Assembly (NCBI GenBank): GCA_963833985.1
Contig: CAWIAD010000002.1
Coordinates: forward strand, 3,296,001-3,360,000
Direction of reading: 5' to 3'
Origin: an uncultured Planctomycetaceae bacterium
GTDB lineage: Bacteria > Planctomycetota > Planctomycetia > Isosphaerales > Isosphaeraceae
Length of the DNA stretch: 64,000 nucleotides
The first letter of the stretch is position 1. Each line of letters starts with the position of its first letter. The position numbers and the translations under genes are program-made. Under the pieces are notes generated by a model. That model did not search any database, was not told the origin of the DNA, and worked only from the letters and a program-made list of their open reading frames with translations. Shown in pieces: positions 47,160-54,758 of this stretch.

Positions 47160-48302
47160 ATGAACTCCGCAACGACCGCGACCGCCGAAATCAGCCAGGG
47201 CACCTTGGCCCCCGCGGGGACCGACGCCCCGCTCCGCGCCGTGCATACGCTCAATTTCCCGGCGTTGCTGCGCCGGCTGGGCGCCTCGCTCCTGGTCACG
47301 ACCTACCAGGCAGGTAAGCTGGTAATGGTCCGCGACGAGGGCGACCACCTCAACGCCCACTTCCGCACGTTCCCCGCCCCGATGGGGTTGGCCCTGCATG
47401 TTGACCGCCTGTGCATCGGCACCTCGATGCAGATCTGGGAATACCGCGACGTCCCGGCCGTCACGTCCAAACTCGCGCCTCCCGGTCGTCACGACGCCTG
47501 TTTCCTGCCCTGCCGTTGCCACGTCACGGGCAACGTCTCGGTCCACGAGATGGCCTTCGGCGGCGACGAGTTGTGGTTCGTCAACACCCGGTTTTCCTCC
47601 CTTTGCACCCTCGACCCCTCGTCGAGCTTCGTGCCTCGCTGGCGGCCGTCGTTTGTCACGGCCCTGGAGCCGACTGACCGTTGCCACCTCAACGGCCTGG
47701 CGATGGAGGGCGGCCGGCCCCGCTACGTCACGGCGCTGGGCGCCACCGACTCCGCCGCCGGCTGGCGGGCGAACAAGGCAAGGGGCGGCGTGCTGCTGGA
47801 GGTCCCCGGTGGCGAGGTGGTCGTCTCCGGCATGTCGATGCCTCACTCGCCGCGCCTGCACCACGGGCGGCTCTGGGTCTGCGAATCGGGGGCCGGCACG
47901 CTCGGTATCGTCGAACTGAACACCGGGAGATACGAGCCGGTGGTGGCCGTGCCGGGCTTCACCCGCGGCCTGGACTTCGCCGGTGGGATTGCGTTCGTGG
48001 GGATGTCGCAGGTGCGCGAGTCGGCCGTCTTCAGCGGAATCCCAATCACCGAGCGGCTGCCCCAATCGGAGCGGACCTGCGGCGTCTGCGCCGTGGAGCT
48101 GACCAGCGGCAAGGCGGTGGCCTTGCTGCGGTTCGAGTCGGCCGTGCAGGAGGTCTTCGCGGTGCAGGTCCTCCCCGGCCGCCGCTACCCGGACCTGATC
48201 AACGACGACGAGACGCTCTTGCAAAACTCCTTCGTCGTTCCCGACGAGGTTCTTACCGACGTGCCGGCCGCCATGAAGGCGCCCCGACTCCTGCCCCAGT
48301 GA
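47160..48302 (+). CDS. TIGR03032/DUF4915 family protein
   Basis: SLLVTTYQAGKL, FVNTRFSSLCTL, DRCHLNGLA, MPHSPR, VPGFTRGL, VGMSQVRE. Confidence 0.9.
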   Translation: MNSATTATAEISQGTLAPAGTDAPLRAVHTLNFPALLRRLGASLLVTTYQAGKLVMVRDEGDHLNAHFRTFPAPMGLALHVDRLCIGTSMQIWEYRDVPAVTSKLAPPGRHDACFLPCRCHVTGNVSVHEMAFGGDELWFVNTRFSSLCTLDPSSSFVPRWRPSFVTALEPTDRCHLNGLAMEGGRPRYVTALGATDSAAGWRANKARGGVLLEVPGGEVVVSGMSMPHSPRLHHGRLWVCESGAGTLGIVELNTGRYEPVVAVPGFTRGLDFAGGIAFVGMSQVRESAVFSGIPITERLPQSERTCGVCAVELTSGKAVALLRFESAVQEVFAVQVLPGRRYPDLINDDETLLQNSFVVPDEVLTDVPAAMKAPRLLPQ

Positions 48303-48423
48303 GGCTCTTCCCGCTCCTCACCCACGCGCCGGAAAGGCCAAGGGCGAAGAACATAATGACGGATGTACCAACAGAACACGCACGCCACCGTGAACTGTGA
48401 GCGGCCCCATTCGTGCTCCGCCT

Positions 48424-48838
48424 GTCGGGCTCACGCCCGAGGTTGGGGGCTGCGCCCGTGAAAACCACGTGCTGACGCACGTGGCCATGTGCCGCAGAGT
48501 GGCATCGTCCCAGAATGGCCTTGGCGCACCGACCGTAGCAACCCACCGGCTGGCAGGGCCTTGCGTGCGCCGAACCGCACACGCCGTACGACGTCCTGGG
48601 ACGATGCCCGCAGAGTCCATCACGCCCGCGCACGGTGGCGTGCGTCGCGGGCTCCAGGTGTGTCGGGTGTGTCCAGCGCAGCGACGACGCACCGTTTTGC
48701 GTTCCTGGCTTCCTCACTGGTCGGGCTCACGCCCGAGGTTGGGGGCTGCGCCCGTGAAAACCACGTGCTCACGCACGTGGCCATGCGCCGCATAGTCCAT
48801 GGCGCTGGCGCACCTGGCCATGTGCCCGGGCTCCAGGC
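48424..48838 (+). repeat. Two more copies of the hairpin leader plus 37-bp unit element
   Basis: GTCGGGCTCACGCCCGAGGTTGGGGGCTGCGCCCGTGAAAACCACGTGCT..CGCACGTGGCCATG at 48424 and 48720, matching 37977. Confidence 0.9.
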
Positions 48839-48858
48839 GGAGAAGTCATAGTGCACGA

Positions 48859-48980
48859 CCCGGCCCGCAAGGATCTCGTGCCCTGCGACGACGCGGATAC
48901 GGATGCCCCGGCACGCAAGGATTGCGTGCCCTGCGGCGATGCGGATGCGGACGCAGACGCCCCGGCACGCAAGCATCGCC
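48859..48980 (+). repeat. Tandem 48-54 bp repeat (about 2.4 copies)
   Basis: CCCGGC(C/A)CGCAAG(G/C)AT..CGTGCCCTGCG.CGA.GCGGAT.CGGA at 48859, 48907, 48961. Confidence 0.75.
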
Positions 48981-49204
48981 TGCCGTACGAATACACCTGC
49001 CCGACGGCTGGGGGGGAAAATCAAAAATTCCCCCGGATTCCTCCGATTTTTGGCAGTTTCGGTCGGATCCTCATAGATAGACGGCAGATCCCGGCGCATC
49101 GGCCGCGGCTCGCCGAGGGAGGTCGCTCCTCAGGTGAACCGCCGGCCAGGGCCGCTCTGCACACCGCATACACGACCTGCACCAAAAACAAAAAGAGCAA
49201 CATC

Positions 49205-50948
49205 GTGGCCAGTACAGCCCAGATCGCGGCCAATCGCCGCAACGCCGCAAAAAGCACAGGGCCGAAGAGCGACCAGGGCAAGGCCCGCGCCCGGCTCAAC
49301 GCGCTGAGGCATGGCGCCAACGCCCGCATCGCCATCCCCGTCCTGCCACAGGAAGATCCGAAGGAGCTCGCCGAACGGATCTTGCAGTGGACGTTCGAAC
49401 TCGTGCCGCGCAACGACGTCGAACGCACCCTGGTCGGCCATGCCGCACGCCTCGACTGGCAGATCGACCGCGCCGAGCGGGCCGAGACGGCTTACCTCGC
49501 GGCTCGCGTCCACCGCCAGCGCGACCGCGACGAGGCCACGCGGCTGAAGCAGGCCCACATCCTGGGCCGCAAGCTGCTGGACACCCTCGACCCGCGTGAG
49601 CGGTTCGGCAAGGCCGAGTACTACGACGACATGCCCACCGTCTTCCTCACCCGGCTCGAGCAGCTCCCCGAGGGCTGCCGCTGGCTGCTGGCGCGGTGGT
49701 CCGAGTTCCGCAACCTCATCGACGTGCGGGCCGCATGGAGCGAGACCGACCACTACCGGTTCCTGCGGCTCATGGGCAAGAGCTTCCTGGAAGGCATGAT
49801 CGACCCGGCCGCCAACCGCGTATTCCAGGCCGTCGACGCGATCGAACCGGGTCAGGGCCGCGAGCTCTGGGAGCTGTTCCGGAACATGAAAGCCAGTTCC
49901 GGCCCCTATTTCAGCGGCGCGATGCCGTGGCGGCGCTCTCGCGCCCGCCGGCGAACGCGAAAGAGGGCTGGGAGGTCCTCAGCTCGATCGTGGACGAGGC
50001 GATCCACCGGCTGGAAGCGCGGCTCGGCGAGCACGAGGACCTGGAGCAGATCGAAGCCGACGCCGAGCCCGACCGCGCGGTCTTCGCCGCCAGCAAGGCC
50101 GTCGCGGTCCTGCGCAGGCACCAGGGCGCGCTGACCCGCGAGCTGCTGCGCACGCTGACCACGCTGTCGAAGCTGCAAAAAGCCGAGCTCGGCGCCGACA
50201 ACAATAATGAAGCCGACCGCCTCCCCATGCCGGTTGTCCATGAGCCGCAGGTCGACCCGCGCCGGAGCCGGACGCACGTCAACCACACGATGAATCGCGC
50301 GATGGCCGGAATGAAGGGGATGGTGCCGGGATGGCGTCGAGCGGGGGCATCCCGCACGTAAAGGTCTGCAAGACGGTGGGTTGCGCTGCGCTGACCCACC
50401 CTACGGGTGGTGCTTCGCGCGTTTCTCAGAGTATCTTGAACGAAGCCAATGTTTTGGCGATGCAAGTTGAGAGTGGCAAGGAGGATACAGCCGTTGCGGA
50501 GCGCATCCTGCAGCCAGAACGGAGCCAAATCCGTGAGGGCCGGCGGAAGTCGCGGATCGGCCCCGCGCCCGAGCCGGACGCACGTCAACCACACGATGAA
50601 TCGCGCGACGGCCGGAACGAAGGGGATGATTCCGGGATGTCGCCGGGCGGGGGCATCCCGCACGCAAGCGTCTGCAAGCCGGTGGGTTGCGCTGCGCTGA
50701 CCCACCCTACGGGGGGTTCTTCAAGAGTTATTGCGAGTAGCCTGAACGAAGCCAATGATCTGGCGATGCAAGTGGAGAGTGGTAAGGAGGATACAGCCGT
50801 TGCAGAGCGAAACTGCCGGCCAGAACGAACCCAATCGGGCACGCGCCTCGGGCAGGATGCGAATGGAGGGGGCGGAATTGGCGACACGCAAAAAGGGAAT
50901 GGAAAGGAAGATGAGAAGGGCGGCAGAAAACAGAAGATAAAGGGATGA
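49205..50948 (+). CDS. Hypothetical protein of the IAANRRNA..STGP..HG family; frameshifts near 49930 and 50260
   Basis: VASTAQIAANRRNAAKSTGPKSDQGKARARLNALRHG, helical core, low-complexity tail with NEAN/ERTQ motifs. Confidence 0.7.
50265..50835 (+). repeat. 306-bp tandem duplication, each copy holding a GTAG-type REP hairpin
   Basis: GAGCCGGACGCACGTCAACCACACGATGAATCGCG at 50265 and 50571; GGTGGGTTGCGCTGCGCTGACCCACCCTAC at about 50375 and 50681. Confidence 0.9.
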
Positions 50949-52836: not shown

Positions 52837-53234
52837 CATACGAACAATCCCAAGGCGACCTGTCCATTTCCGAGCGGTTGAGTGCTTTCCGGCCAAGCAC
52901 CTTGACGCGATCAGCGGGCATCGGCTAACTTGCCGTACCGCCCCGGTGATGGGTTTGCTCGCGGATCCCAGGTTCCGCAACGGCAGCGGAAAAATCCCCC
53001 GTTCCGGCGATCGACAGGAAGACCACTGTCCTATGATCTCGGTTGGAATGGGCTGGATGAGCTCCGCCCGTGACTCTTCGAGAACCTCCGTCCTTGCTCG
53101 AATTCCTCAGCCAACCCGAGTATCCGACGCCGGATCCTCGTGACTCGCCCTGACTGAAATGATGCTCTCACCCTGTGAAGACACCATGGGACCCTGTCCC
53201 TGCGACATTCTTCGACTCTCAGAAAAGGTTGATC

Positions 53235-54170
53235 ATGACGACGACCGCGACCATCCGGCAACCCTCCCTGCACGTGGCCTGGCCATCGGTGATCTGGATT
53301 GGCGCCATGCACGCGGGAGCGTTGCTCGTCTTCGTGCCGTCCTACTTTAGCTGGTCAGGCGTGCTGGTCTGCCTGTTCCTGCACTGGCTGACTGGCGGCA
53401 TCGGCATCTGCATGATCTATCACCGCCTGCTGACGCATCGCAGCTTCACGCTGCGTCCGCGCTGGCTCGAGTACCCGTTAACGGCCATTGGAGCGATGGC
53501 CTCGGAGGGGGGTGCGATCGGCTGGGTCGCCGACCATCGCCGCCATCACGCGCACTCGGACGATGAGAATGACACGCACACGCCGGTTCAGGGTTTTCTG
53601 TGGGCTCACATGGTGTGGTGGATGCTTGTGGAGGAGTCCTCCAACCATAGCCTGGAATACTACGACCGGTGGGCGCCGGACCTGAACCGCGACCCGGTAC
53701 ACCGCTGGCTCGACCGTTACCACTTCGCTTTTCCGCTGGCGCTTTTTGGGCTCTTGTACTACCTGGGCGGCATGAGCTGGCTGGTCTGGGGCGGTTTCTT
53801 CCGGACCATCTTCGTGTTGCACACGACCTGGCTGGTCAATTCGGCCAGTCACATCTGGGGCTACCGCTCTCACCCCACGCGTGACAAGTCCACGAACCTC
53901 TGGTGGGTGGCATTGCTCACCTATGGAGAGGGATGGCACAACAACCACCACGCGTTTCAGACCTCGGCGCGACACGGCCTGGACTGGTGGGAGATCGATC
54001 CGACCTACCTGGTCATCAAGCTCCTCTCGTTCGTCGGTGTGGCGGGCAACATCAAGCTGCCGAAGATCACCCGGAAGTCGCTGGCTGCCGACGCCCTCGT
54101 GACGGCAGGCGGCGAGAACGCGGACGCGCTGGTGGACGATCCGAACCAGTTCGTTCCCACCGAGGTGTGA
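53235..54170 (+). CDS. Membrane fatty-acid (acyl-CoA/acyl-lipid, delta-9 type) desaturase
   Basis: Three His boxes HRLLTH, HRRHH, HNNHH; GEGWHN. Confidence 0.95.
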   Translation: MTTTATIRQPSLHVAWPSVIWIGAMHAGALLVFVPSYFSWSGVLVCLFLHWLTGGIGICMIYHRLLTHRSFTLRPRWLEYPLTAIGAMASEGGAIGWVADHRRHHAHSDDENDTHTPVQGFLWAHMVWWMLVEESSNHSLEYYDRWAPDLNRDPVHRWLDRYHFAFPLALFGLLYYLGGMSWLVWGGFFRTIFVLHTTWLVNSASHIWGYRSHPTRDKSTNLWWVALLTYGEGWHNNHHAFQTSARHGLDWWEIDPTYLVIKLLSFVGVAGNIKLPKITRKSLAADALVTAGGENADALVDDPNQFVPTEV

Positions 54171-54324: not shown

Positions 54325-54758
54325 GCGGCCCTAGCTCAACGGCAGAGCAGGGGACTCATCAGATTCTCAAAGGTGCCGCCGGCGGGAAAGCCTCCGGATG
54401 TGAACCGGGTGAATTGCGGGAAACCTAAACCCTGATCGTGGCCGATGTGGAATGGCCGGGTGCCGCGTGAGGAACGCGGCCTCGGTCGCCGCAGGCGTGC
54501 TCGGGGCACGGCAATCCGCAGCCAAGCCTGGCCGGGCTCTGGTGGCCAGGAAGGTTCAGAGACTAGCGAAGTGAGCCCCAACAATAATCTTCGCCATGAG
54601 CGCCCGGCCTCCTCGGGTTGGTTCAGCGTGCGGTTGCGGTCGGAACACGACGGACCGGCTTGCCAGGCCACTCGTTGGGGGATGAGATAGTCCAAGCCTC
54701 GTGGAAACGCGAGGGCCCTTGAATCCCTTGGTTGCAGGTTCGAATCCTGCGGGCCGCA
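54325..54758 (+). tRNA. tRNA-Ile2 (CAU anticodon), two exons 54325-54359 and 54722-54758; CCA not encoded
   Basis: Joined exons fold to a cloverleaf: GCGGCCC/GGGCCGC-A acceptor, GCUC/GAGC D-stem, GGGGA-CUCAUAA-UCCCU anticodon arm, GCAGG-UUCGAAU-CCUGC T-arm. Ile2 rather than Met is inferred from resemblance to enterobacterial Ile2. Confidence 0.9.
54360..54721 (+). ncRNA. Group I self-splicing intron (362 nt, no ORF)
   Basis: Exon ends in U, intron ends in G; GUG guide (54373-75) pairs with CAU; P AAUUGCGGGAAA, Q AAUCCGCAGC, R GUUCAGAGACUA, S GAGAUAGUCC; P3 CCGGGUG/CGCCCGG; P9 CCUCGUG-GAAA-CGCGAGG. Confidence 0.95.

Follow-up and report, generated by a model that had tools for sequence, protein, structure and literature searches.

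This locus raises the question of how a bacterium reads AUA codons when its only tRNA-Ile2(CAU) gene is interrupted by a ribozyme, and of what kind of intron this is and how it came to be there. The window, i.e. the whole 64,000-nt stretch of planctomycete DNA that was analysed, carries the gene on its forward strand in three parts. A 35-nt 5′ exon (54325..54359; tRNA positions 1–36, with G3 and the ending GACUCAU) is followed by a 362-nt group I intron that lacks an open reading frame (ORF) and ends in ωG (54360..54721), and then by a 37-nt 3′ exon (54722..54758) that runs from A37 to the discriminator base A73, with CCA not encoded. Removing 54360–54721 yields a 72-nt tRNA with anticodon CAU, and given the joined exons ARAGORN recognizes a CAU tRNA, as the sequence-only reading had proposed. 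The same reading placed the insertion between U36 and A37; three intron-free genes (L029, L030, L031) have CUCAU and AAUCCC directly joined at the exact junction, which fixes the site at 36/37. Among the matches listed, the 5′ exon letters are unchanged in 67 of 84 parsed homologous genes. Upstream, on the same strand, lies a fatty acid desaturase gene (53175..54170; PF00487), a conserved neighbour that marks the orthologous locus.

The Rfam group I model RF00028, suggested earlier as a check, matches 54356–54714 with 53 bits (cut-off 50, E 2e-11), and this is its sole match in the whole genome. Several features first listed as signs of group I identity are present in the sequence: U at −1, the terminal G, the P/Q/R/S core, the P7.1 strands GCGAAG/CUUCGC, and the CCUAA...CACGG motif. 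No nuclease-like ORF fits inside the intron, in agreement with the claim that it encodes no homing endonuclease. Gene finders handle the locus poorly, as had been foreseen. ARAGORN reports zero tRNAs on the raw window; its intron option finds the correct intron length of 362 nt but labels the gene Gln. The Rfam tRNA model scores 24 bits on 54687–54758, where the 3′ end of the intron and the 3′ exon together mimic a tRNA. In S. acidiphila, a Gln-TTG call at 3765285–3765345 is listed in supplementary material of the tRNAscan-SE 2.0 paper (Chan et al., PMC8450103, as far as the source was available). This call corresponds to the last 27 intron bases plus the 3′ exon (L069:1350–1410) and is thus a phantom tRNA-Gln(UUG). 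A promoter and terminator scan gave no candidates. Among 24 RNA runs matched against the S. acidiphila locus, only 9–15% of its words were present, and four RNA-library contig sets held intron and exon pieces with no joint across the intron, one 17-kb contig being evidently DNA.

The identity of the tRNA and the number of its genes decide how much depends on splicing. G3 with C70 is described as marking Ile2 and C3–G70 as marking Met (Silva et al., PMC1635315, in the part consulted). The split gene has G3–C70, its exons occur once in the genome, tilS is present (160 bits against a threshold of 93.6), and the other two CAU genes fill the Met roles, one with C3–G70 and the third with the fMet pattern A11–U24. 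Both the assignment to Ile2 and the single-copy status suspected from the window alone are thereby upheld. The 53 intron-free tRNA calls include these two CAU genes, and neither a tRNA-Ile(UAU) nor a tRNA-Lys(UUU); blastn of an intron-free allele against phage tRNAs could not tell Ile2 apart from Met. AUA is a rare codon (about 1.4 per 1000, with AAA at 4.4 per 1000); among 4479 long ORFs selected with a crude filter, 1895 contain it. Because the tRNA-Ile2(CAU) gene is the sole one and no Ile(UAU) gene accompanies it, AUA decoding likely depends on splicing in this genome, which is 96% complete. In a single-copy gene the intron would also have to stay active, and from its sequence the intron is very likely active and predicted to be self-splicing. 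It is predicted to leave the pre-tRNA by the standard self-splicing route, two steps initiated by guanosine; TilS would then modify C34 and so enable the tRNA to read AUA.

The architecture was examined on 88 distinct introns at Ile2 36/37, pooling 87 of the family type with the one of another planctomycete, G039. P1 (54357..54375) pairs CAUC (54357–60) with the guide GGUG (54372–75), and the U54359.G54373 wobble marks the 5′ splice site. The 3 bp first assigned to P1 are too few: in each of the 88 introns the nucleotide preceding GUG pairs with position +1, so that the helix comprises at least CAUC/GGUG, i.e. 4 bp or more. P2 (54377..54400) is a hairpin with a GNRA-type loop and two-sided changes in seven of its nine pairs. 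P3 is a pseudoknot of CCGGGUG (54405–11) with CGCCCGG (54601–07), spanning 54405..54607, invariant and hence free of covariation. The P4–P6 domain (54415..54555) comprises P4 (54415–20/54515–20), P5 with the receptor-like CCUAA...CACGG and a variable extension (54426–54509), P6, and P6a (54527–32/54545–50). P7 (54561..54692) pairs GACUA (54561–65) with UAGUC (54688–92) and holds the G–C guanosine-binding pair, so that a P3–P9 core with its guanosine site is present. P8 with its variable extension occupies 54608–54681, and P9 (54697..54714) is closed by a GAAA tetraloop with no P9.1. GAAA loops had been noted on both P2 and P9; the P9 loop holds, reading GGAAAC in 88 of 88 introns, whereas GAAA on P2 is peculiar to this genome, the family having GYRA in 79 of 88. 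The terminal G, here G54721, is kept in all 84 parsed introns among the matches listed.

A model of 62 pairs in 12 helices from P1 to P9 is 98.8% paired across 22 homologues, against 36–54% for slid controls, and shows two-sided change in 18 of the 62 pairs (0 of 500 shuffles); it was derived from the first sequence, and its P1, P3, P5 and P6 never vary. Single-strand folding gives a z of −2.3, and the predicted fold misses the pseudoknotted core. The extensions of P5, P6 and P8 vary freely among relatives around an invariant catalytic core. The length and the large P5 and P8 extensions, earlier offered as distinguishing this intron, are therefore variable decorations, relatives' introns measuring 252–425 nt. 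Nor does the proposed P10 survive: GAUU, supposed to pair with AAUC of the 3′ exon, occurs in 4 of 88 introns, the first in-register P10 pair in none of the 88, and the candidate was rejected. P10 not being conserved, the anticodon stem likely aligns the exons, and its strands GGGGA/UCCCU may hold them together in place of P10 as in Azoarcus and Anabaena. According to the available part of one study, tRNA introns have a weak P10 or use the anticodon stem in its place, and the Azoarcus ribozyme works best with its anticodon stem, the same being cited for Anabaena (Dolan and Muller, PMC3895272). The L9 GAAA would dock in P5 and the L2 GNRA loop in P8.

The feature that sets this intron apart is P7.1, a P7 extension (54566..54594) with the stem GCGAAG/CUUCGC and the conserved loop UGAGYCCCAACRAUAA. 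It is present in 85 of 85 parsed introns and absent in the G039 intron at the same site. Relative to GCGGGG/CCCCGC of most relatives, the stem has two compensatory changes in this genome, and with phage kin included three of four pairs are changed on both sides. GGG in L6a (54534–36) can pair with CCC in L7.1 (54577–79), a P11-like pseudoknot spanning 54534..54579 that may brace the core as in IA1 introns. The combination is GGG:CCC in 83 and GAG:CUC in 2 of the 85 parsed introns (3 of the 88 were not parsed); in genus g274, GAG:CUC is found in five of six genomes and GGG:CCC in one. P6a, P7.1 and P11 taken together with phage kin are 99.4% paired, 11 of 16 pairs having two-sided change. For P11 itself the sequences lend modest support, with three base pairs and one kind of compensatory change, perhaps a single event.

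How does this build fit the recognized subgroups? IC3 introns, the Azoarcus type, typically have a compact core with no extra element between P7 and P3, and P7.1 is such an element. IC3 is also the subgroup to which the four classical types of tRNA intron are assigned (Williams 2020, in the portion available). A P7 extension paired with P6b in a pseudoknot, P11, is given in available text as characteristic of IA1 (PMC13580324) and as shown by cryoEM (PMC12088405). The tRNA-Ile2 intron shares with IA1 the P7 extension between P7 and P3 and a P11-like pairing of its loop with an extended P6. Only P9 stands between P7 and ωG; without P9.1, the contact of the P7 extension with P9.1 cannot exist, and for this reason the intron is called IA1-like and is not filed as IA1. 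On sequence comparison it likely has an IA1-like build that differs from IC3. The suggestion that it represents another subgroup or an independent invasion gains from P7.1, from the P11-like pseudoknot and from the different intron type in G039. Since the latter sits at the same site without P7.1 and with other letters in P4 and J6/7, the 36/37 site of Ile2 was probably entered on two occasions within this class.

Against this stands the possibility of a standard intron of the Azoarcus IC3 lineage that acquired an accessory hairpin at its usual site, with no independent invasion and no real P11. The same tRNA and site, the short P1, the GNRA loops on P2 and P9, the receptor-like P5 and the missing P9.1 all fit it. 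So do planctomycete tRNA-Arg(CCU) 36/37 introns (L027 in G025, L295 in G184), which carry P7.1 on an Azoarcus-like core, so that P7.1 can accompany more than one type of core. FastTree on 75 core nucleotides nests an IC3-like group among the P7.1 introns; relationships are not resolved by this tree, and it is kept out of the ancestry argument. The core letters themselves point the other way. Over these 75 nt, leaving aside 7 of 36 introns that did not parse (one from a phage, two Lys and four rRNA or other), identity is 0.73 to the P7.1-less G039 intron and 0.64–0.65 to planctomycete Leu(UAA) and Ile2 33/34 introns, but 0.91 to gammaproteobacterial Lys(CUU) and 0.86 to phage introns, the last two values being inflated because these kin were found with patterns from the tRNA-Ile2 intron. 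Model R1 gives 98–103 bits on the family and on one phage intron outside its training set but 20.8 on G039; over 150 genomes of the phylum it finds one further match, an Arg(CCU) intron. In phages, L6a GGG and the loop CCC are kept in 20 of 20 introns although the P6a and P7.1 stems otherwise differ. An origin within the IC3 lineage is therefore judged unlikely.

The phage introns come from viral contigs, where 20 of 21 loci with the P7.1 pattern (L250–L270) are group I introns. The exons of four were tested and all match major head proteins; one intron ORF matches a nuclease family. Several contain a LAGLIDADG-like ORF, one lies, as judged by eye, beside a ribonucleotide-reductase-like ORF, and two viral contigs (L256, L264) hold two introns each. 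A blastn search of annotated phages with the tRNA-Ile2 intron gave no match. Elsewhere, gammaproteobacterial and proteobacterial tRNA-Lys(CUU) genes (L089, L143, L162) contain 36/37 introns of 213–217 nt with a near-identical core. Other Planctomycetia have introns at Ile2 33/34 (L325, L326, L333), at Leu(UAA) 34/35 (L328–L330, L332, L336) and apparently in rRNA genes (L296, L299, L327, L331).

The distribution of the intron is that of an old resident. A pattern scan of species genomes found at least 118 loci, at least 84 of which parse as split tRNAs (at least 81 Ile2 and at least 3 Lys(CUU)); the named Ile2 hosts among the matches listed are Singulisphaera, Paludisphaera, Tautonia and Tundrisphaera, with many MAGs of Isosphaeraceae. 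In this family 111 of 121 genomes carry the interrupted 5′ exon, as do 45 of the 47 good genomes, and one of the 121 has the intron-free junction; among the remaining nine, L304 carries the intron with a variant exon. RF00028 matches occur in 35 of 36 family genomes against 13 of 114 others of the class, with scores of 55–76 bits on relatives. All 59 loci with long flanks keep a syntenic neighbour (the desaturase in 48, the downstream gene in 40, both in 29). Distances between introns correlate with those between desaturases (54 loci, rho 0.39, 0 of 500 permutations, with kin not independent). The intron-free locus of G017, also syntenic, falls within the intron-bearing group (local support 0.84–0.93). 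Synteny, correlated distances and the nested position of G017 together argue for one old gain, vertical descent and rare exact loss. Horizontal transfer to anammox bacteria, raised by the label of L118, was rejected: introns of the same type occupy the syntenic site in g274, a genus that is assigned to the family itself.

How the intron arrived is a matter of conjecture, since neither the genome nor the surroundings of the 59 loci yielded a nuclease gene to a motif scan and tblastn. A mobile, probably phage-borne, IA1-like intron may have entered the site once, in the ancestor of Isosphaeraceae and independently of the P7.1-less Azoarcus type, any nuclease having been lost afterwards. It would then have descended vertically with its host lineages, close to neutral in effect, with rare precise loss tolerated.

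Some loci show further rearrangement. Two (L288 in G008, L289 in G009) contain inserts of about 2 kb that end in a duplicate of the last 6–7 intron bases and the 3′ exon, and integrating elements thus seem to use the intron–exon junction as an attachment site. The intron-free locus of G017 (L292) is accompanied by an island of 15 kb, which includes an integrase-like ORF as well as a duplicate whose start lies within the anticodon stem. G005 has two different copies of both split genes (L003 and L028; L039 and G005:C33), which suggests a mixed bin. Within the window, repeated stretches in overlapping ORFs at 48253–48851 and 49906–50948 may be repeat elements or a decayed mobile element; Pfam gave no match in the overlapping repeat-bearing ORFs of 48851–50134.

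The missing tRNA-Lys(UUU) is split as well. Its sole gene lies on the minus strand, 89 kb before the window (G000:C2:3207328–3207726; L022:3329–3727), with a 326-nt insert after U34, P1 CUU/C:GGAG (the slash marking the splice site) and a terminal G. Helices P3–P9 show covariation. RF00028 gives no match on the intron of this genome even at E 10, and on those of relatives 25–54 bits, mostly below the cut-off. The intron may resemble subgroup IB; its 75-nt core is 0.66 identical to the Ile2 intron and 0.54 to planctomycete Leu(UAA). The core motif is present in 86 of 121 family genomes, and genus g274 has variants that the core pattern misses. Genus g264 has the intron-free junction at syntenic sites in seven of its eight genomes. 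Of 70 metagenome sequences matching the pattern, 61 carry tRNA-Lys(UUU) exons and eight lack the core; the remaining one is an AT-rich intron in a different location. A blastn survey of 300 further genomes from the phylum did not detect the Lys intron, and viral contigs gave one chance match but no such intron. Some genomes of the family (L273, L274, L275, L277, L278) have an additional tRNA-Lys(UUU)-like gene or gene fragment that is uninterrupted and divergent, has different exon sequences and may lie on mobile DNA. This unrelated second group I intron may have taken the same course as the first.

Two introns of this kind invite stronger claims. The most far-reaching holds that since the origin of the family two unrelated, non-IC3 ribozymes, one IA1-like, derived from phage capsid genes and settled independently at the Azoarcus site, the other an uncatalogued type at Lys(UUU) 34/35 that escapes standard models, have resided in single-copy tRNA genes, and that the host uses splicing control of AUA and AAA decoding as a regulatory or anti-nuclease device; taken as a whole this deserves little credence. 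Host benefit by itself, whether a supply of AUA- and AAA-reading tRNAs that depends on Mg2+, GTP or temperature, or a precursor pool safe from anticodon nucleases, could explain why two ORF-less introns are near-fixed across about 50 genera against sporadic matches elsewhere in the class, and both tRNAs do read rare A-ending codons. Precise losses at orthologous sites, of the Ile2 intron in G017 and of the Lys intron in most of g264, speak against it, and long retention would be expected anyway, because exact deletion is rare and damage to a single-copy gene would be lethal; we consider such a benefit very improbable. A dead intron or pseudogene, with AUA read by another tRNA, could appeal to the RNA contigs without a spliced joint and to the incompleteness of the genome, but it is scarcely credible given no other Ile2 or Ile(UAU) gene, one intron-free allele in 121 family genomes, exons that are mostly identical among the matches listed, an invariant core with free loops, and an intact tilS. 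The account we prefer, and hold to be probable as a whole, is a self-splicing IA1-like intron in the sole Ile2 gene that entered once in an ancestor and descended vertically as a near-neutral passenger, with the Lys intron as a parallel case.

What is new here must be separated from what is known. Ile2 36/37 is one of four classical tRNA intron sites; RF00028 and a new model were run over 80,413 genomes, with 21 types listed by phylum (Williams 2020, as far as available). With its 70 bits against RF00028, the S. acidiphila intron was probably among those counted in that survey, and planctomycete cases are probably already in automated catalogues of this kind. The first impression of an undescribed planctomycete example was thus overstated, the 111 interrupted family genomes including type strains sequenced years ago, which the 2020 survey very likely found. 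IA-type tRNA introns in Patescibacteria have reportedly been described by Nakagawa et al. in 2025. No description of an Isosphaeraceae or planctomycete tRNA intron was found in the literature searched, and bioRxiv supplements and image tables may hold one. IA1 is listed among bacterial introns, with planctomycetes absent from the text examined (Hausner 2014), and RF00028 is shown to miss group I subtypes (Nawrocki 2018, in part). The insertion site is already known; new are the IA1-like build there, the fact that a single family carries it almost throughout, and the second intron in Lys(UUU).

Several consequences follow. Annotation of the whole family can be corrected, as tRNA-Ile2 and tRNA-Lys(UUU) look missing; group I introns are given as the reason why 36 genomes appear without fMet or Ile2 (Chan et al., PMC8450103, in the accessible part). 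The same anticodon-loop site appears to have been taken by two intron lineages in one class. That introns without ORFs have been kept so long by vertical descent, exact loss being rare, offers a way to test retention against loss in cultured strains. Folding studies and circular-RNA tools may draw on the 88 natural variants of this compact, GC-rich ribozyme, which has an IA1-like brace and can be as short as 252 nt. Known group I chemistry is unchanged by the finding.

The closest known counterpart by position is the Azoarcus intron, in which we know of no P7.1. The planctomycete intron differs from it in P7.1 and the P11-like pseudoknot, in its 252–425 nt and in being nearly fixed across a family. 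The earlier statement that both occupy the same tRNA and site is correct: the host is Ile2 and the insertion follows U36 (the Ile2.5Ug class). They further share U−1, ωG, the lack of an ORF, a short P1 with an extension, GNRA loops on P2 and P9 and, likely, reliance on the anticodon stem (PMC3895272, in part). IA1 introns such as the Candida albicans mitochondrial LSU intron resemble it in a P7 extension whose loop pairs with an extended P6 (P11) and differ in host and in P9.1, absent here in a bacterial tRNA gene; this likeness is one of structural description, not of sequence (PMC12088405, PMC13580324, as far as available). The uncatalogued phage introns have the same core letters, the P7.1 loop GUGAGUCCCAAC and L6a GGG, but interrupt major head protein genes (four tested) and in some cases carry a nuclease-like ORF. 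The Lys(CUU) 36/37 introns also have the same core letters, with a shorter and different P7.1. For the second intron, the Leu(UAA) 34/35 intron of cyanobacteria and plastids (Leu.3Ug) is alike in insertion after U34, a short P1 with U.G and ωG, and unlike in its tRNA host, in lacking the large conserved P5 extension of the Lys(UUU) intron and in its core letters.
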